Positions 8,745-63,527 of a DNA stretch of 64,000 nucleotides are shown here, piece after piece. Each line of letters starts with the position of its first letter. The stretch's first letter is position 1. Origin of the DNA: Heterodontus francisci (lineage: Eukaryota); the NCBI RefSeq assembly GCF_036365525.1, contig NC_090388.1, positions 32,863,231 to 32,927,230 of the forward strand. Reading direction: 5' to 3'. Both the position numbers and the translations under genes were made by a program. Under the pieces are notes generated by a model. The model ran no database searches, was not told the DNA's origin, and worked only from the letters and a program-made list of their open reading frames with translations.

Positions 8745-10370
8745 AAAGACAAAGAACAAAGATAATTACAGCACAGGAACAGGCCCTTCGGCCCTCCAAG
8801 CCTGCGCCGATCCAGATCCTCTCTCTAAACATGTCGCCTATTTTCTAAGGTTCTGTATCTCTTTTCTTCCTGCCCATTCATGTATCTGTCTAGATACATC
8901 TTAAAAGACTCCATCGTGCCCGCGTCTACCACCTCCGCTGGCAACGCGTTCCAGGTGCCCACCACCCTCTGCGTAAAGAACTTTCCACGCATATCCCCCC
9001 TAAACATTTCCCCTTTCACTTTGAACTCGTGTCCTCTAGTAATTGAAACCCCCACTCTGGGAAAAAGCCTCTTGCTGTCCACCCTGTCTATACCTCTCAT
9101 GATTTTGTACACCTCAATCAGGTCCCCCCTCAACCTCCGTCTTTCTAATGAAAATAATCCTAATCTACTCAACCTCTCTTCATAGCTAGCGCCCTCCATA
9201 CCAGGCAACATCCTGGTGAACCTCCTCTGCACCCTCTCCAAAGCATCCACATCCTTTTGATAATGTGGCGACCAGAACTGTACGCAGTATTCCAAATGTG
9301 GCCGAACCAAAGTCCTATACAACTGTAACATGACCTGCCAACTCTTGTACTCAATGCCCCGTCCGATGAAGGAAAGCATGCCGTATGCCTTCTTGACCAC
9401 TCTATTTACCTGCGTTGCCACCTTCAGGGAACAGTGGACCTGAACACCCAAATCTCTCTGGACATCAATTTTCCCCAGGACTTTTCCATTTACTGTATAG
9501 TTCACTCTTGAATTGGATCTTCCAAAATGCATCACCTCGCATTTGCCCTGATTGAACTCCATCTGTCATTTCTCTGCCCAACTCTCTAATCTATCTATAT
9601 TCTGCTGTATTCTCTGACAGTCCTCTTCAGTATCTGCTACTCCACCAATCTTAGTGTCGTCTGCAAACTTGCTAATCAGTCCACCTATACTTTCCTCCAA
9701 ATCATTAATGTATATCACAAACAACAGTGGTCCCAGCACGGATCCCTGTGGAACACCACTGGTGACACGTCTCCATTTTGAGAAACTCCCCTCTACTGCT
9801 ACTCTCTGTCTCCTGTTGCCCAGCCAGTTCTTTATCCATCTAGCTAGTACACCCTGGACCCCATGCGCCTTCACTTTCTCCATCAGCCTGCCATGGGGAA
9901 CCTTATCAAACGCCTTACTGAAGTCCATGTATATGACATCGACAGCCCTTCCCTCATCAATCAACTTTGTCACTTCCTCAAAGAATTCTATTAAGTTGGT
10001 AAGACATGACCTTCCCTGCACAAAACCATGTTGCCTATCACTGATGAGCCCATTTTCTTCCAAATGGGAATAGATCCTATCCCTCAGTATCTTCTCCAGC
10101 AGCTTCCCTACCACTGACGTCAGGCTCACCGGTCTATAATTACCTGGATTATCCCTGCTACCCTTCTTAAACAAGGGGACAACATTAGCAATTCTCCAGT
10201 CCTCCGGGACCTCACCCGTGTTTAAGGATGCTGCAAAGATATCTGTTAAGGCCCCAGCTATTTCCTCTCTCGCTTCCCTCAGTAACCTGGGATAGATCCC
10301 ATCCGGACCTGGGGACTTGTCCACCTTAATGCCCTTTAGAATACCCAACACTTCCTCCCTCCTTATGCCG
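8745..10370 (-). mobile_element. Young 5'-truncated CR1 LINE in wnt16 intron 3
   Basis: RT motifs NYRPVSLTS, YMDFSKAFDKVPH, GVPQGSVLGP, FADD; frame open over ~1.5 kb except one TGA at 9568-9566. Confidence 0.97.
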
Positions 10371-10803
10371 AGTGTTGGTAGCACTCTCCCCTCTAACTCA
10401 GAAGGTTGTGGCTTCAAGTCCCACTGCAGAGACTTGAGCACAAAAATCTAGGTGGCAATCTAGTGCAATACTGAGGGAGTGCTGCACTGTTGAAACTGCT
10501 GTCTTTTGGATGAGATATTACACCGAATTCCCAGCTGCCCCCTCAGGTGGATGTAGAAGATGCCATGGCCTATTTCAAGAATAACAGGGATCTATCCCTG
10601 GTGTCCTTGCCATTACTTATCCCTCAATCAACATCTCAAAAAAATGTGCGAGTCATTATCACATTATTGTTTGTGGGAGCTTCTTGTGCACAAATTGGTT
10701 GCCACATTTCCTACATTACATCAGTTTTAAAAGTACTCCGTGGGCTGTAAAGAGTTTGGGGTCCAGAAGTGGTGAAAGGCGCTATATAAATGCAAGTCTT
10801 TCT
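10371..10803 (+). mobile_element. SacSINE1-like (DeuSINE) element
   Basis: tRNA-like head (GGCTTCAAGTCCC), Deu-like core GGATGAGAT...AGATGCCATGG...CCCTGGTGTCCTTGCC, L2-type tail GGCGCTATATAAATGCAAGTCTTTC. Confidence 0.75.
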
Positions 10804-15929: not shown

Positions 15930-16615
15930 ATATACCCGAAGTCTCGCCCCCTCCGCACAGTGCCCCCGCGGTGGCTGTGGTGGGAAGAGACCGTTGCCCA
16001 CCTCTTCCTGGAATGTGTCTTCGCAAAGCAGGTGTGGAAAGAGATGCAGTGGTTTTTGTCGAGGTTCATCCCAAGCAGCTCTGTAACACAGGAGTCTGTG
16101 CTCTACGGGCTGTTCCCAGGGACGCACACTGAGACAAACGTCAACTGCTGCTGGATGACTATCAATTCGGTGAAAGACGCCCTTTGGTCTGCCCGAAACT
16201 TGCTGGTCTTCCAGCGCAAAGAGTTGTCCACCACCGAATGTTGCAGACTGGCACATTCCAAGGTCCAGGACTACGTGCTGAGGGACGCAATAAAGCTTGG
16301 GGCAGCCGCAGCAAAGGCTCAATGGGGAAAGAACACTGTGTAAGGTCCCCCCACCAAGCTGCACGAGGGGCTGGATCCATGGGAAACCCCTCGAACTGTA
16401 TCGGGAAAATTTCTGTCTCCTGCATAATGTAAAAATGTATCTGGCATGACAAATGTGAAATGGAAGGGTTGTGAGGCAACTCATAATTGTATTGAAGGAA
16501 ACTGATCACCTTTGCACTGTTTGTATTTTTTGACTTGATGCTGTTTTAAACTGTTTGGGAATGTAATTTTTACAGATTTTTATGAATAAAGTATATTTTG
16601 GAAATAAAAAAAAAT
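15930..16615 (+). mobile_element. Tx1-clade (L1 superfamily) LINE 3' fragment
   Basis: C-terminal zinc knuckle CPRGGCGGxETVAHLFLEC, ALWSARN motif, AATAAA and poly(A); same family as 62327-63527. Confidence 0.9.
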
Positions 16616-22344: not shown

Positions 22345-22625
22345 GCAGCCTGGTGGTTATAGTACTGGACTAGCACCACAGAGTCATGAATTCAAATCAT
22401 ACCATGGAAAGTAGTGAAAGTCAGTTCAATAATCTGGTCATTAGTGGGCTGACACAAGCAAAATAACCAAAAAGGCTAATTGATTGTTGTAAAACCCAAC
22501 TGGTTCACTAACATCCTTCAGGAAAGGGAATCTGGCCTCCTTGTGTCTCCAGTCCCACAGTATGTAGCTGATTCTTCATACTCTCAGAACAACTAGGGAT
22601 GGAAAATAAATACTGCCTGACCACT
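22345..22625 (+). mobile_element. Old tRNA-headed SINE related to the head and tail of the 39571-43053 element
   Basis: Shares GATTGTTGTAAAACCCAACTGGTTCACTAA core and CAACTAGGGATGG..AATAAA tail. Confidence 0.7.
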
Positions 22626-32329: not shown

Positions 32330-33032
32330 TTATTTAATTCTTTCATGGAATGTGGGTGTTGCTGGCAAGGCCATACCTAATTGCCCTTAACAAATGAGTG
32401 GCTTGCTAGGCCATTACAGAGGACAGTTAAGAGTCAACCACATTGCTGTGGGTCTGGAGTCAGATGTAGGCCAGACCAGGTAAGGACAACAGATTAGTGA
32501 ACCAGATAGGTTTTTACAACAATTGATGATAGTTTCATGGCACCATTATTGAGACTAGCTTTCAATTCCAGATTTTATTAATTAATCTGGGCGGCACAGT
32601 GGCGCAGCGGTTAGCACTGCAGCCTCACAGCTCCAGGGACCCGGGTTCGATTCTGGTTACTGCCTGTGCGGAGTTTGCAAGTTCTCCCTGTGTCTGCGTG
32701 GGTTTCCTCCGGGTGCTCCGGTTTCCTCCCACATGCCAAAGACTTGCAGGTTGATAGGTTAATTGGCCATTATAAATTGCCCCTAGTATAGGTAGGTGGT
32801 AGGGAAATATATAGGGACCGGTGGGGATGTTATTGGAATATGGGATTCGTGTAGGATTAGTATAAATGGGTGGTTGATGGTCGGCACAGACTCAGTGGGC
32901 CGAAGGGCCTGTTTCAGTGCTGTATCTCTAAACTAAACTAAACTAAACTAATTGGATTTAAGTTCCACAAGGGACCATGTCCCTAAGGCATTGCTAGTTC
33001 AGTGACATTACCACTACACCACCATCTCCCCC
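32330..33032 (-). mobile_element. tRNA-headed SINE (head + LINE tail only), interrupted by an HE1 SINE
   Basis: Minus strand reads GGGGAGATGGTGGTGTAGTGGTAATGTCACTG ... GGCCTAGCAAGCCACTCA|TTTGTT|AAGGGCAATTAGG...CCCACATTCCATGAA, matching the head and tail of 39571-43053. Confidence 0.8.
32589..32951 (+). mobile_element. Full-length HE1-like V-SINE
   Basis: A box TGGCGCAGCGG, B box GGTTCGATTCT, V-domain, CR1-type tail and (CTAAA)n end. Confidence 0.92.
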
Positions 33033-35129: not shown

Positions 35130-36615
35130 TTCTTGTGGCGGAAGAGGGCATGGCTGAGATAATCAAGGAGTACTTTGCATCTGTCTTTACTAGAGAAGAG
35201 GATGCTGTCAGTGTAGCAGTAAAGGAGGAGGTAGTAGCAGTAGTAGATAGGATTAAAAATAGATGGAGAGGAGGTACTTAAAAGGTTGGCAGTACTCAAT
35301 AGTGGAGAAGTCATCTGTTCTGCATGGGATGCATCTTAGTTTACTGAGGGAAGTAAAGATGGAAATTGCGGAGGCCCTGGCCACTATCTTCCAATCCTTC
35401 TTGGATATGGGGACAGTGCCAGAGGACTGGAGGATTGCAAATGTTACATCCCTGGTCAAAAAAGGGGCGAGGGATGAAGCCAGCAACTACAGGCCAGTCA
35501 GCCTAATGTCCATGGAGGGGAAACTTTTCGAGATAACAATCTGGAACAAAATTAATTGTCAGCTGGAAAAGTAGGTGCTAATTAATGAAAGTCAACATGG
35601 ATTTGACGAACTTGATCAAGTACTTTGATAAAGGAGCAGAGTTGATGAGGGTAGTGTGGTTGATGTACATATGGACTTTAAAATATGTTTGACAAAGTGC
35701 CACATAATATATTTATAAGCAAAATTAAAGCCCATGGAATTAAAGAGACAGCTGCAGTGTGGATACAAATTTGGCTGGGGGACAGAAAACAGAATAGTGG
35801 TGAATGGTTGTTTTTCAGAATGGAGGAAAGTATACATTGATGTTCCCCAAGGGGTCAGTATATGGATCACTGCTCTTATTAATATATATTAATGACCTGG
35901 ACTTGGGTAGAAGGGAAAGGGAAGCAGGTGTATAAGAACACCACTGCCTTCAAGTTCCCCTCCAAGTCACACGCCATCCTGACTTGGAACTGTATCGCTG
36001 TTCCTTCATTGTTGCTGGGTCAAAATCTTGGAACTCCCTCCCTAATGGCACCATGGGAGTAGCTTAACCACATGGATTGCAGAAGTTCAAGAAAGCGGCT
36101 GACCATCACCTTCTCAAAGGCAATTAGGGATGGGCAATAGAGTCATTAACAACACAGAAGGAGGCCATTCAGCCCATCGAATCCATGCCGGCTTTCCACG
36201 GAGCTATGCTGTCAGTCCCATTCCCTGTCTCAATACCTATAGCACTGCAAGTCTATTTCTCTCAGGTGGCCATCCAGCTTCCTCTTGAAGTCATTAATCA
36301 TCTTTGCTTTCACCACCCTTGTGGGCAGCGAATTCCAGGTTATGATGGTTTGCCAGCGATGCCCACATCCCATGAATGAATTAAAAAAAATCAAAGTTTG
36401 CAGATGAATTGGAAATGTAATAGACAATGAGAAGGCTAACAACAGACTTCAGACTGGTGGAATGAGCAGACACATGGCAGATGAAATTTAACACAGAGAA
36501 GTGTGAAGGTGCAGTGCTATGGGGAAAGACCAGGTGAATGGGACTAATTGGCTAGCTCTACCGAAGAGCTGGCACAGGCGCAATGGGCCAAATAGCCTCC
36601 TTTCTTTGATTCTAA
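35130..36615 (+). mobile_element. Degenerate CR1 containing a nested 3' fragment of the SINE-headed LINE family (~35930-36390), itself interrupted by a minus-strand CR1 tail (~36140-36340)
   Basis: VPEDWRIANVT/NYRPVSL; 35930-36138 matches 42800-42998. Confidence 0.8.
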
Positions 36616-39284: not shown

Positions 39285-39570
39285 CTAAACATTCAGAAAA
39301 AAGAACAATTAATTTGTATATTCCAAGAGAGCATTTATTTTTGATGAGATTCAAACTGTATCTGGTCAAGACTTTTCCAATTCTATTGTCCAAGTAATAC
39401 TTTTTATTTGAACCAGTCAAATCTGGCATCAGTGACCCTTCTACTCGGATTTAAAATATCTATTCAGATAACGAAATTTTTGTCTCTGACTTTTAACTGT
39501 TGCAATATCCCTCTTCTACTGTTGTTCACTTCCTCTTTGTTAGCTTCTTCATTTAAACATAAACAAGTAT

Positions 39571-42500
39571 GAGGGGAGGTGGTGGCATAGTGGTATTGTC
39601 ACTGGACCAAAGACCCAGGGTATTTCTCTGGGGAGATGGGTTTGGATCCCACCACAGCAGAAGGTGTAATTTGAATTCAATTAATAAATCTGGAATGTGG
39701 TTAGCACCACAGCCTCACAGCTCCAGGGACCCGGGTTCAATTCTGGGTACTGCCTGTGCGGAGTTTGCAAGTTCTCCCTGTGACCGCGTGGGTTTTCACC
39801 GGGTGCTCCGGTTTCCTCCCACCGCCAAAGACTTGCAGATGATAGGTAAATTGGCCATTGTAAATTGCCCCTAGTGGAGGTAGGTGGTAGGGAATATGGA
39901 ATTACAGTAGGGTTAGTATAAATGGGTGGTTCTTGGTCAGCACAGACTTGGTGGGCCGAAGGGCCTGTTTCAGTGCTGTATCTCTAAATAAATAAATAAA
40001 AAGCTAGTCTAATGATGGCCATGAAACCATTGTTGATTGTTGTACAAACCCATTTGGTTCACTCATGTCCTTTAGAGAAGGAAATCTGCTGTCCTTACCT
40101 GGTCTGTCCTACATATGACTCCAGACTCACAGCAATGTGGTTGACTCTTAAATGCCCTAGCAAGCCACTCAGTTGTATCTAACCACTACAAAGTCAATGA
40201 AACTGGACGGAACACCCGACATCAACCTAGGCACTGGAAACGACAATGGCAAACCTAGCCCTGTCAACCCTGCAAAGTCTTCCTTACTAACATTTGGGGC
40301 TTGTGCCAAAGTTGGGAGTGCTGTCCCACAGACTAGTCAAGCAACAGCTGACAGTCATACTCATGGAATCATACCTTACAGACAATGTCCCAGACATCAC
40401 ATCCCTGGGTATGTCCTGTCCCACTGGCAAGACAGACTCAGCAGAAGTGGCAGCACAGTGGTATACAGTAGGGAGGGAGTTGCCCTGGGAGTCCTCAACA
40501 TTGACTCCAGACCCCATGAAGTCTCATGGCATCAGGCCAAACATTGGAAACCTCCTTCTGATTACCACCTACCGCTCTCCCTCAGCTGATGAATCAGTAC
40601 TCCTCCATGTTGATCACCACTTGGAGGAAGCACTGAGGGTGGCAAACGCGCAGAATGTACTCTTGGGTGGGGGACCTCAATGTCCATCACCAAGAGCGGC
40701 TCGGTAGCACCACTTCTGGCTGAGTCCTAAAGGCCAAAGCTGCTAGACTGGGTATGTGGCAGGTGGTGAGGGAAAAACATACTTGACCTCGTCCTCATCA
40801 ATCTGCCTGTCCATGGCAGTATTGGTAGGAGTGACCACCGCACAGTTCTTGTGGAGACAAAGTCCCGTCTTCACATTGAGGATACCCTCCATTGTGATCT
40901 GTGGCACCACTGTGCTAAATGGGATAGATTTCGAACAGAGCTAACAATGCAAAACTGGCATCCATGAGGCGCTGTGGGCGATCAGCAGCCGAATTGTACT
41001 CAACCACAATCTGTAACCTCATGGCCGGGCATATTCCCCACTCTCCTGTTACCATCAAGCCAGGAGACCAACCCCTGGTTCAATGAAGAGTGCAGGAGGG
41101 CATGCCAGGAGCAGCATCAGGCATACCTCAAAATGAGGCGTCAACCTGAAGAAGCTACAATACAGCACTACTTGCATGCAAAACTGCGTAAGCAGCATGC
41201 GATAGACAGAGCTAAGTGATCCCATAACCAATGGATCAGATCTAAGCTCTGCAGCCCTGCGACATCCAGCCGTGAATGGTAGTGGTCAATTAAACAACTA
41301 ACTGGAGGAGGTTGCTCCACAAATATCCCCATACTCAATAATGGGGGAGCCCAGCACATCAGTGTAAAAGATAAGGCTGAAGCATTTGCAACAATCTTCA
41401 GCCAGAAGGGCCGAATGGATGATTCATATCGGCCTCTTCCTCGAGGTCATAGATGCCAGACTTCAGCCAATTCGATTCACTTTGCGTTATATCAAGAAAC
41501 GACTGAAGGCACTGGATACTGCAAAGGCTATGGGCCCTGACAATATTCCCGCAATAGTACTGAAGACCTGTTCTCCAGAACTTGCCGCACCCCTAGCCAA
41601 GCTGTTCCAGTACAGCTACAGCACGGGCATCTACCCGGAAATGTGGAAAATTGCCCAGGTATGTCCTGTACACAAAAAGCAGGATAAGTCCAACCCGGCC
41701 AATTACCGTCCCATCAGTCTACTCCCAATCATCAGTAAAGTGATGGAAGGTGTCATCGACAGTGCTATCAAGTGGCACTTGCTCAGCAATAACCTGCTCC
41801 GTGACACTCAGTTTGGGTTCTGCCAAGGCCACTCAGCTCCTGACCTCATTACAGCCTTGATTCAAACATGGACAAAAGAGCTGAACTCCAGAAGTGATGT
41901 GACAGTGAATGCCCTTGACATCAAGGCAGCATTTGACAGAGTATGACATCAAGGAGCCCTAGCAAAACTGAAGTTAATGGGAATCAGCAGGAAAACTCTC
42001 TGCTGATTGGAGTCGAACCTAGCGCAAAGGAAGATGGTTGTGGTTGTTGGAGGTCAATCATCTCACTCCAGGACATCACTGCAGGAGTTCCTCAGGGTAG
42101 TGTCCTAGGCCCAACCATCTTCAGCTGCTTCATCAATGACCTTCCTTCAATCATACGGTCAGAAGTGGGGATGTTTGCTGATGATTGGACAATGTTCAGC
42201 ACCATTCGCGACTCCTCAGATACTGAGGCAGTCTGTGTAGAAATGCAGCAAGACCTGGACAATATCCAGGCTTGGGCTGATAAGTGGCAAGTAACATTCG
42301 TGCCACACAAGTGCCAGGCAGTGACCATCTCCAACAAGAGAGAATCTAACTATCTCCCCTTGATATTCAATGGCATTACCATCGCTGAATCCCCCACTAT
42401 CAACATCCTAGGGGTTACCATTGACCAGAAACTGAACTGCAATAGCCATATAAATACCATGGCTATAAGAGCAGGTCAGAGGCTAGGAATCCTGCAGCGA

Positions 42501-43053
42501 GTAACTCCCCTCCTGACTCCCCAAAGCCTGTGCACCATCTACAAGGCACAAGTCAGGAGTGTGATAGAATACTCTCCACTTGTCTGGATGGGTGCAGCTC
42601 CAACAACACTCAACACCATCCAGGATAAATCAGCCTGCTTGATTGGCACCCTATCCACAAACATTCACTCCCTCCACCACCGATGCATAGTGGCAACAGT
42701 GTGTACCATCTACAAGATGCAACGCACCAAGGCTCCTTAGACAGCACCTTCCAAATCCACGACCTCTACCAACTAGAAGGACAAGGGCAGCAAATGCATG
42801 CGAACAACACCAACTGCAAGTTCCCCTCCAAGTCACACACCATCCTGACTTGGAACTATATTGCTGTTCCTTCACTATCGCTGGGCCAAAATCCTGGAAC
42901 TCCCTTCAGCACTGTTGGGTGTACCTACCTCACATGAACTGAAGCAGTTCAAGAAGGCAGCCCACCATCACCTTCTCAAGGGCAATTAGGGATGGGCACT
43001 AAATGCTGGCCTAGCCAGCAATGCCCACATCCCATGAATGAATAAAAAAATAA
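39571..43053 (+). mobile_element. SINE-headed LINE (APE endonuclease + RT, no ORF1; Jockey/CR1-group but distinct from the amniote-type CR1s here) in the last cped1 intron
   Basis: A box TGGCATAGTGG, degenerate B box GGTTTGGATCC; ORF2 pieces NIWGLVPKL...VILMESYL, NYRPISLL, ALDIKAAFDRV, GVPQGSVLGP, FADD; tail CCCATGAATGAATAAAAAAA; AAGTAT on both flanks. Confidence 0.85.
39697..39997 (+). mobile_element. HE1-like V-SINE nested in the SINE head
   Basis: Slightly 5'-truncated copy of the 32589 element with a (TAAA)n tail. Confidence 0.9.
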
Positions 43054-44394
43054 AAGTATCTATTCGCTATCCCTGCTCAGCAGTATTTCCTTTGAGTTTA
43101 TATTGTTCATCCCTCTGTGGACCTATCTCGATCTTAATTCTCCTTTTGTTACTTTACTGGTTTAGATTTTTTTAACGGCTTTTTATATTCTTTTGAGATT
43201 TTAATTTCATATTTCTTCTTTACCTTACTAATTGTCTTTTTAACCTCATTATTATATTCCCTTTTGTCAGCTCTTAATTGCCACCGACAGAGCAGTTTTG
43301 ACAACGGAGCATAACTACACATTTTCAAGATGAAGTTGTCCACTGGCATCTGTGCAGAGGGGCAGCTGTTAAATGTACAGTTCTGCAGAGAGGCCCTCAT
43401 AGGACCAGTGCAGTTTGTAGATGCATTGGTGGGTTGCTGGCCTCTGTTATGCTTTTCCTGGCCTGAACAAGCTGCTGCTGCAACTTCTCCTCTACTATGA
43501 TGGCACAGGGTTGTGTGTTTTGGGGGAAAGCCATCCCATGTCCAAAGTCAATCTGAGAGTGGGCAGCAGAAAGCACTACAGCAAACTTGGAGTGCAGGTG
43601 TCCGTGATTAAAAAATGTTAAGGACAAGGTTCCCCGGAAGCCTGTAATCAGCCCACTAACTCCTCAACTAAATCAATCGAAAGTGCTTGGGGGAAGCTTT
43701 TTTTGGGCAAAAAGTTACACCGATAGCAAGAGCAGCATAAACCCAAGAAACATTTGTGTACTTAAACAGTGCAGCTGATCTCTGAGGCTTTGACGGGTCT
43801 AAAATTTGCACTATTAAAAATCTCAAGGAAATTTGCATTTAGCGCACTAAAGGCATAAATGTACCTAAATGCACTAAAACACAAATTTCCTCGATCTTTT
43901 CAGCAAAATAACAGAGTAACAATGTTGTAAGTACTGAAGACAATAGGAAGTTCAGGGCCAATTTTTTTTAACTTTACCCTGAGATGCAGCAATGCATTTT
44001 ATCCAATGGCTCAGTGAAAAACTGACAAAAATCACTCCAACTGTGGGAGAAATGGATTTGAATAGACTTAACACAGCACATTTATAATTGTTAAACAGAA
44101 TTAAAACTACCTGTTTACATGTCACTGATATTTATTCATATACATATTTGCTAATCTTTGAATATAACTGGAATAGTATTTTGTTGGTAGTGCTGCAGTG
44201 TTTGCTGAAGTTAAAAGCATCTAAATTAGTTTTACTTAAACATGCTATATTATATATCTTTGCTTAATAAATTAATTAGGGCAAATAAATGAAACAAGCG
44301 ATAAGTTACAGTCCTGTAATTTAACACAATGAATGCACTTAAAATGTCTGTGTAACATTTTGATTCCTAAAAAGCCTCAGGAGAAACATTTTTA

Positions 44395-62326: not shown

Positions 62327-63527
62327 TTTTTTTTTTATTTCCAAAATATACTTTATTGATAAAAATCTGTAAAAATTACATTGCCAAACAGTTTCAAACA
62401 GCACCAAAAAATACAAACATTGCAAGGGAGATCAGTTTCCTTCAATACAATCATGAGTTGCTTCACAACCCTTCCATTTCACATTTGTCATGCCAATTAC
62501 ATTTTTACATTTACAGCAAATGAAAATTTTCCCGATACAGTTCGAGGGGTTTCCCATGGGTCCAACCCCTCAGTTCAGCTTGGTGGGGGGACCTTACACA
62601 GTGGTCTTTCCTCATTGAGCCTTTGCTGCGGCTGCCCCAAGCTTTAGTGCGTCCCTCAGCACGTAGTCCTGGACCTTGGAATGTGCCAGTCTGCAACATT
62701 CGGTCGTGGACAACTCTTTGCGCTGGAAGACCAGCAAGTTTCGGGCAGACCAAAGGGCGTCTTTCACCGAACTGATAGTTCTCCAGCAGCAGTTGATGTT
62801 TGTCTCGGTGTGCGTCCCTGGGAACAGCCCGTAGAGCACAGACTCCTGTGTTACAGAGCTGCTTGGGATGAACCTCGACAAAAACCACTGCATCTCTTTC
62901 CACACCTGCTTTGCAAAGACACATTCCAGGAGGAGCTGGGCAGCCATCTCTTCCCCACCACAGCTACTGCGGGGGCATTGCGCGGAGGGGGCGACTCTTC
63001 GGGTGTGCAGGAAGGATCTGACGGGGAAGGCCCTTCTCACCACCAGCCAAGCTACATCTTGGTGCTTGTTTGAAAGTTCTGGTGATGAGGGATACCGCCA
63101 AATGACTTTGGCGGTCTGCTCGGGGAACCATCCGACAGGATCCCCCATCTCCTTTTCCCTTAGGGCCTTGAGGACATTCCGTGCAGACCACTGCCTGTTG
63201 GATCGGTGGTCAAAGGTGTTTTCCCGCAGAAACTGCTCCATGAAGGATAGGTGGTACGGCACGGTCCAACTGCATGGAGCGTTCCACGGCAATGTGACCA
63301 GGCCCATCCTTCGCAACACCGGGGACAGATAGAACCTCAGCACGTAGTGACACTTGGTGTTTGCGTACTGGAGGTCTACACACAGCTTGATGCAGCCGCA
63401 TACGAAGATGGTCATCAGGATGAGGGCCACGTTGGCTACATTTTTCCCGCCCTTATCCAGAGGTTTGAACATCGTGTCCCTCCGGACCCGGTCCATTTTG
63501 GATCCCCATATGAAGCGGAAAATGGCG
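62327..63527 (-). mobile_element. Tx1-clade LINE, 5'-truncated
   Basis: 294-aa ORF 62612-63496 (AIFRFIWGSKMDRVRR, WLVVRRAFPVR, zinc-knuckle region); poly(A) tail read as poly(T) at ~62327. Confidence 0.93.

Follow-up and report, generated by a model that had tools for sequence, protein, structure and literature searches.

Introduction

Zenon retrotransposons of sharks and rays were described by Stuart et al. 2026 (PMC13343379), who provided consensus sequences designated CarCar, HypSab, RhiTyp, ScyCan and SquAca. The main text of that paper characterises Zenon as a long interspersed element (LINE) lacking the first open reading frame (ORF1) and ending in a poly(A) tail, and states that the elasmobranch elements are absent from repeat repositories; the terms "tRNA", "polymerase III" and "start codon" occur nowhere in it. 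The hagfish and coelacanth Zenon rows of the same work begin with a different sequence from the elasmobranch ones. Here we analysed a 64,000-nt stretch of the Heterodontus francisci genome (contig NC_090388.1, positions 32,863,231 to 32,927,230, forward strand; hereafter the window), which carries a dead Zenon copy. We consider it somewhat probable that this copy represents a LINE with only one open reading frame (ORF) and a tRNA-derived 5' head, with likely RNA polymerase III (Pol III) transcription and possible translation from a GCU codon without any AUG.

Two described systems resemble the short derivatives of this family. In lepidopteran Zenon, the Persaeus SIDE illustrates the repeated origin of short elements by internal deletion (PMC6740152); as described there, Persaeus shows neither tRNA homology nor a Pol III promoter, whereas the shark parent bears such a promoter, so that its deletion product is a short interspersed element (SINE). 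Bipartite SINEs of RTE and Vingi LINEs, such as Bov-A and Bov-tA, are also composed of LINE 5' and 3' parts, but they acquired their tRNA head once the deletion had taken place, and the LINE itself is headless, unlike the shark element (PMC5786205). According to the clade list of that paper, CR1-group LINEs, among which Zenon is counted, stand outside the four clades given for ORF-less bipartite elements. SacSINE1 and the CmiSINEs of sharks and chimaeras (PMC5499810) are tRNA-headed SINEs too, but carry a Deu or CORE body and an L2 tail, and are set apart here by this description and not by sequence.

As regards translation without AUG, the closest system is the intergenic region (IGR) internal ribosome entry site (IRES) of dicistroviruses, which the shark leader resembles in a proposed start without AUG, on or beside GCU, in a predicted hairpin of anticodon type, in a single-stranded linker and in its length of ~200 nt (PMC10516663, PMC10275262, PMC3517527, bioRxiv 2024.04.17.590008). 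Pseudoknot I of the viral IRES mimics an anticodon-codon pair beside a non-AUG first codon, often GCU (PMC10516663), and three pseudoknot pairs can yield weak IRES activity (PMC3517527). The shark leader differs in a pairing predicted to span 3-4 bp and to include the GCU itself, with no sequence match to the viral elements. The string "retrotranspos" has no occurrence in the text of three IRES papers searched or of PMC12221177, and Luke et al. 2013 (PMC3894237) discussed, hypothetically, non-LTR elements with IRESs of the IGR type, a case that would force ORF2 to be rethought. A literature search, conducted mainly at listing level and covering few subscription titles, found no paper on a tRNA-headed autonomous LINE or on an IGR-type IRES in a LINE; in the literature searched, the tRNA-headed LINE architecture is undescribed.

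The tRNA-derived head is a family trait

On the basis of sequence likeness, the family is the elasmobranch Zenon LINE of Stuart et al. 2026. In a comparison by eye, the first 400 nt of the published elasmobranch Zenon were near-identical to our element and included the same head, and two short motifs of the element are present at six and five places of the supplement examined. The published elements are 3.24-3.31 kb long and share the absence of ORF1 and the poly(A) tail (PMC13343379); in the shark genome we likewise found a single ORF encoding an apurinic/apyrimidinic endonuclease (APE) and a reverse transcriptase (RT), no ORF1 and a poly(A) tail. The family and its missing ORF1, which is normal for Zenon, are already known. 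The head, although contained in the consensuses, is unremarked in the published main text, since the word "tRNA" is never used there.

A preliminary description of the window had proposed a SINE-LINE hybrid with a tRNA head, and this proposal is supported by the genome copies and by the five shark and ray consensuses. Exact k-mer counts over the whole 6.0-Gb genome returned 2,761 matches for a 25-mer across the junction between leader body and ORF, 11,565 for a 22-mer at the endonuclease start and 52,313 for a 3' 22-mer, while reversed-sequence control k-mers gave none. Provided that the 22-mers decay alike, we infer that about one copy in eight is full length. The head forms the start of 36 of 39 junction-selected loci. 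Since these loci were the best-scoring of 10,010 candidates and thus biased, an unselected sample was taken, consisting of the first 30 endonuclease-start matches along one contig. Sixteen of these copies reach the tRNA head, six end in the body and eight just downstream; the leader shared with the SINEs is present in 22. No alternative 5' untranslated region and no ORF1 was found among the 30: upstream, the 14 truncated copies border on unrelated flank, on other repeats or on pieces of the element that have been rearranged. The 3.3-kb unit made up of head, leader, ORF and tail moves as a whole.

Because the junction 25-mer recurs so often and most unselected copies run into the leader, the head-LINE junction was confirmed as a family trait, as opposed to a fortuitous chimera. 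An accident in which a truncated LINE landed in a SINE at the window locus has practically no probability left: only the nested HE1 described below is an event of that sort, and the exact junctions across the genome, together with the identical junction in five species, refute it. Weighing on the other side, the family copies are not independent. An intact ORF occurs in none of the 39 copies, the longest having 750 codons.

An RT tree of 23 rows separated the element from the CR1 of the host (support 100/99) and grouped it with L160, P0001 and P0002 (92/90) at ~50% RT identity, but this tree included no named Zenon reference. L160 is the closest relative, with 42% protein identity, and further close relatives were found in neither viral nor prokaryote contigs. 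In P0004, a protein of the sevengill shark whose annotation reads aldo-keto reductase, a stretch covering 28% of the query is 88% identical to the LINE ORF, probably as a gene-model artefact or an exonisation.

Probable Pol III transcription

ARAGORN called a tRNA-Thr(AGT) in three of five younger LINE copies and in two of three SINE copies tested. The A and B boxes are preserved in the five published species consensuses, and the arms between them vary, as judged by eye. Vertebrate Pol III terminates at runs of at least four T (T4). The sense strand of the family majority, built from 22 copies, contains no T4 run in 3,288 nt, against 2.1 (P 0.08), 3.9 (P 0.016) or 4.5 (P 0.01) expected depending on the null, and it has as many runs of A, C and G as expected. 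Within the ORF, runs of at least three T (T3+) number 4 vs 12.7 under synonymous codon shuffles, none of 3,000 shuffles being as low. As a control we used a young CR1-like family of the host (window 8894-10405 and loci L130-L159), of which one copy contained 14 T4 and 46 T3+ runs vs 43 expected; the terminator depletion that the preliminary description had put forward for checking was borne out by 0 T4 in 3.3 kb vs 14 in host CR1. Members of this control family are 97-99% alike over a 401-bp query, and some copies have ORFs of more than 850 codons.

The loss of T runs appears specific to the lineage. The T3 observed/expected ratio is 0.23 in the shark element vs a minimum of 0.69 among 80 metagenomic relatives, none of which is free of T4. 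L160 contains seven T4, and its upstream region gave no tRNA call and no box match; tRNA head and T-purge co-occur in the shark lineage. The family combines intact internal A and B boxes with a majority sequence whose sense strand is free of T4, as expected of a Pol III unit. Since the boxes are kept and T runs are purged from the sense strand, the element is probably transcribed by Pol III.

According to a different explanation, the transcript would be made by RNA polymerase II (Pol II), from an internal promoter or by read-through, the head would be a passenger renewed by recombination with SINEs and the T-poverty a compositional quirk. The text of PMC5786205 considers Pol II very likely both for autonomous LINEs and for bipartite ones, the family majority has an AATAAA ~45 nt before the poly(A), and the 98.1% likeness of young LINE and SINE heads would also be expected from head exchange. 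This explanation is nevertheless unlikely in our opinion, as the T-run loss sets the shark lineage apart from both the 80 relatives and the host CR1, the runs of the other three bases are at expectation, and cap-dependent scanning is unlikely anyway because of nine AUGs located upstream.

Some observations do weigh against Pol III. The codon-usage-preserving null for T4 alone was not significant (P 0.08), and 25 of 32 parsed 3' ends (60 fetched) have no extra T. Data from 24 RNA runs consisted of contigs only, which cover the head, the ORF and the SINE junctions and are uninformative on transcript start, strand, cap and level. The idea that the 3' end contains its own Pol III terminator was considered and rejected, extra T being present in only seven of these 32 parsed ends.

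The predicted leader hairpin and the proposed start of the ORF

The majority ORF extends over 975 codons from stop to stop, and contains no in-frame ATG before codon 284, which lies beyond the endonuclease; the nine AUGs upstream of the proposed start in the family majority all open short frames. The leader ends in a predicted hairpin with the 7-nt loop CTAGCAA, centred on AGC, which is shaped like an alanine anticodon loop, and an in-frame GCT follows 12 nt after the stem. Among 64 LINE-type copies the first codon is GCT in 28, ACT (by CpG decay) in 16 and other or unparsed in 20. In the published rows examined, four of five species have a GCT that is in frame with the ORF. The spacer of the RhiTyp (whale shark) row is reduced by 1 nt before the GCT and by 3 nt after it, a pattern to be expected of a coding region that begins at GCT.

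L160 shows a comparable arrangement, consisting of a 12-bp stem of unrelated sequence, the loop CCAGCTA and an in-frame GCT ACA 11 nt later. None of 2,000 dinucleotide shuffles of its 300-nt region reproduced this hairpin and GCT, and four of 2,000 gave any triplet on a stem of at least 8 bp; for a shark copy, mononucleotide shuffling produced the motif 3 times in 3,000. Contigs from three other organisms, with low depth over the GCT, vary in the linker and at loop position 2 and show the stem, AGC and GCT unchanged at the 20% level. We tentatively propose that translation may start at a GCU set by an anticodon-mimicking pseudoknot, a model that we hold to be possible, if short of probable. 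A region of ~200 nt at the 5' side of L160 (L160:445-655), GC-richer than its flank and helix-rich, is a second candidate IRES, in this case without a tRNA head.

Several results weigh against such a start. The three Squalus consensuses as printed have the GCT out of the ORF frame, and L160 has an in-frame ATG four codons ahead of the endonuclease motif. Among distant relatives with upstream DNA, only L160 shows the hairpin, and its shuffle test was partly post hoc, because the shared GCTACA had been seen before the loop was tested. The predicted loop-codon pairing amounts to 3-4 bp without compensatory change, vs five in cricket paralysis virus (CrPV), and the linker of 11-12 nt is longer than the viral 6-10 nt (PMC3517527). 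Our helix listing gave no model of pseudoknots II and III common to the shark element and L160, and Rfam returned no IRES match at E<=10. Furthermore, a frame-breaking 10-nt deletion lies downstream of the GCT in five copies, the window copy included.

In 42 other, more distant relatives with enough upstream DNA the AGC-loop/GCT motif is absent, the only matches having stems of 4-6 bp with assorted codons. The first 700 nt of family copy L039 gave no ribozyme, IRES or tRNA match above noise in Rfam. In sharks GUGGUU might instead pair with the AACC immediately ahead of the GCU, but no counterpart was found in L160. The leader is not assigned as a type 6 (IGR) IRES.

Alternatively, Pol III transcription might hold while translation begins otherwise, either at a conserved out-of-frame AUG 22 nt past the GCT, with a -1 shift or reinitiation afterwards, or at another near-cognate codon, the hairpin serving as a packaging or RT-binding signal. 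Each of the five species has the out-of-frame AUG in its published consensus; this AUG opens a 46-codon frame, and SquAca_Zenon-1 as printed has the GCT in frame with it; moreover, SINE types i and ii retain the hairpin without the codon. On the other hand, no canonical slippery heptamer was seen there by eye, the nearby out-of-frame AUG of L160 stands in a different relative frame, and the two elements can be aligned over their R/K-rich N-terminus in the frame of the ORF. We therefore judge an alternative start rather unlikely.

SINE-sized derivatives

The SINE-junction pattern has 4,458 matches in the genome, in two main variants. The tRNA-derived head of these elements contains A and B boxes; they are non-coding, share their tail with the LINE and exist in many copies, in line with SINE2. 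They consist of an exact LINE 5' part and a LINE 3' part joined at several different breakpoints, and at least three junction types were recognised; in types i and ii the break falls immediately behind the hairpin, and the GCT is lost. Head identity to the LINE majority is 98.1% for type i and 91.4% for type ii. In an unrooted head tree, built from the 69 of 108 classified loci that had a full head, a supported clade unites 44 LINE heads with 9 of the 13 type-i heads, and a single clade of all 21 SINE rows was rejected by the approximately unbiased (AU) test (p 0.021). As the tree is unrooted, it does not distinguish repeated deletion from head exchange. The several breakpoints favour the direction from LINE to SINE, and the SINEs were likely derived from the LINE by internal deletion more than once.

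The preliminary description had read one window SINE as the same head joined to the same tail, which holds once an HE1 that it did not mention is removed, and had called a second one an older relative, which agrees with its third junction type, joined upstream of the hairpin (Table 1). Between the two origins it offered for the SINE, deletion derivative or progenitor, the breakpoints and the head tree favour the derivative. It might still be argued that a SINE existed first and the LINE was captured behind it, so that present SINEs would be one old lineage and not deletion products. Indeed, the head must originally come from a tRNA or a SINE, L160 has none, and the type i junction occurs in both old and young copies. 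However, each of the several junctions unites LINE 5' and 3' parts, the type-i heads nest with LINE heads and SINE monophyly is rejected, albeit in an unrooted tree; in addition, the end of the body looks LINE-derived, because its hairpin has a counterpart in the headless L160. We consider a SINE-first origin quite unlikely.

In one further copy, L075, a breakpoint of its own links the LINE 5' end with the last ~170 nt, which shows that single internal deletions occur. Pairing between body and tail was evaluated as a cause of deletion and discarded, since it ranks only fourth or fifth among the duplexes. By eye, a head-body pair differs at both partners between the LINE and type-ii majorities, both changes being CpG-type. 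The UCON3 SINE rows compared are unlike the leader body.

The window copy

The features of the window are collected in Table 1. The family 5' end is a G-run beginning at ~39573. As the shared leader stops near 40176 and the first endonuclease motif begins at 40283, there is no room for ORF1; the extent of the element and its A box/B box head leading into an endonuclease-RT ORF without such space, as originally reported, were confirmed on the window sequence. The copy is 93.4% identical to the family majority, has ~20 indels and a mutated B box, and a 12-nt deletion has removed the 5' stem strand of the leader hairpin: it is a dead element. Its RT matches Pfam RVT_1. No Pfam family matched the broken N-terminal endonuclease piece of the window, and the endonuclease match was obtained in family copy L035.

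Table 1. Positions of the Zenon element, its parts and related features in the window
Feature	Positions	Strand	Remark
Elasmobranch Zenon LINE, full-length decayed copy with nested HE1	39571..43050	+	family length ~3.28 kb
Left AAGTAT, possible 6-bp target-site duplication	39565..39570	+	close to chance level family-wide
Right AAGTAT	43054..43059	+	
tRNA-derived head	39573..39660	+	ARAGORN tRNA-Thr(AGT) on younger LINE and SINE copies
A box	39583..39593	+	preserved in five published species consensuses
B box	39639..39649	+	mutated in window copy; canonical in most family copies
Nested 5'-truncated HE1-type SINE	~39697..39998	+	later insertion; missing from other aligned full-length copies
Leader body common to LINE and SINEs (~180 nt)	39999..40176	+	
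Terminal-hairpin remnant	40150..40172	+	7-nt anticodon-like loop CTAGCAA at 40157-40163
Proposed first codon	40185..40187	+	ACT in window copy
Single APE-endonuclease/RT ORF remnant	40185..42989	+	frameshifted in window copy
3' tail common to SINEs	42977..43050	+	short poly(A) at end
5'-truncated 3' fragment of same LINE	35908..36397	+	insertion-split
SINE-sized derivative, older junction type ii	32330..33032	-	interrupted by HE1 32590-32948 (+)
Older derivative, third junction type	22345..22625	+	tail joined upstream of hairpin

The AAGTAT reported on both sides of the element is present, but is weak evidence for a target-site duplication (TSD): TSDs of at least 6 bp occur in 3 of 29 full-length copies vs 4.7% of mismatched flank pairs. 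TSDs as proof of insertion as a single unit were rejected, there being no enrichment over mismatched flanks.

The two nested SINEs, at 39697-39998 and 32590-32948, presumably belong to HE1. They occupy the same AT-rich linker behind the tRNA head in the window LINE and in the window SINE, and three of the 30 unselected heads (L100, L101, L107) likewise show a break within the head or close to it; this linker is possibly an insertion hot spot. Deletions of 12 and 10 nt between short direct repeats (window 40150 and 40196) recur in copies L037, L040, L042, L047-L049, L052, L055, L056 and L063, which suggests either that microhomology has repeatedly mediated the loss or that dead masters were mobilised in trans. 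Elsewhere in the window, a pair of 680-bp repeats at 15934-16614 and 62328-63004 lies on opposite strands, 93% alike, with AATAAA and poly(A) ends.

Discussion

A possible life cycle can be outlined for the active family. Pol III would read the whole element and stop at a T run in the flank, and the uncapped RNA would recruit ribosomes internally. The AGC of the loop would pair with the in-frame GCU, as in pseudoknot I of the dicistrovirus IRES, and thereby fix the frame. Target-primed reverse transcription from the 3' tail is established LINE biology, and the protein would copy the RNA in this way. Since the parent already bears a Pol III head, one internal deletion would yield a ready-made SINE.

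In its most far-reaching form, this scheme depicts a retrotransposon that bypasses both Pol II and the cap, using a 3.3-kb Pol III mRNA made from a captured tRNA promoter; a pseudoknot older than the head would start translation at GCU without initiator tRNA, and the SINEs would keep the ribosome-facing leader and lose the start codon. We regard this full combination as somewhat unlikely.

If the proposed features hold, the textbook split between coding LINEs transcribed by Pol II and non-coding SINEs transcribed by Pol III would be blurred, and a one-step route would lead from LINE to SINE. The translation of AUG-less LINE ORFs, an old question, would become testable, as the shark family offers a specific candidate whose predicted pairing spans 3 bp.

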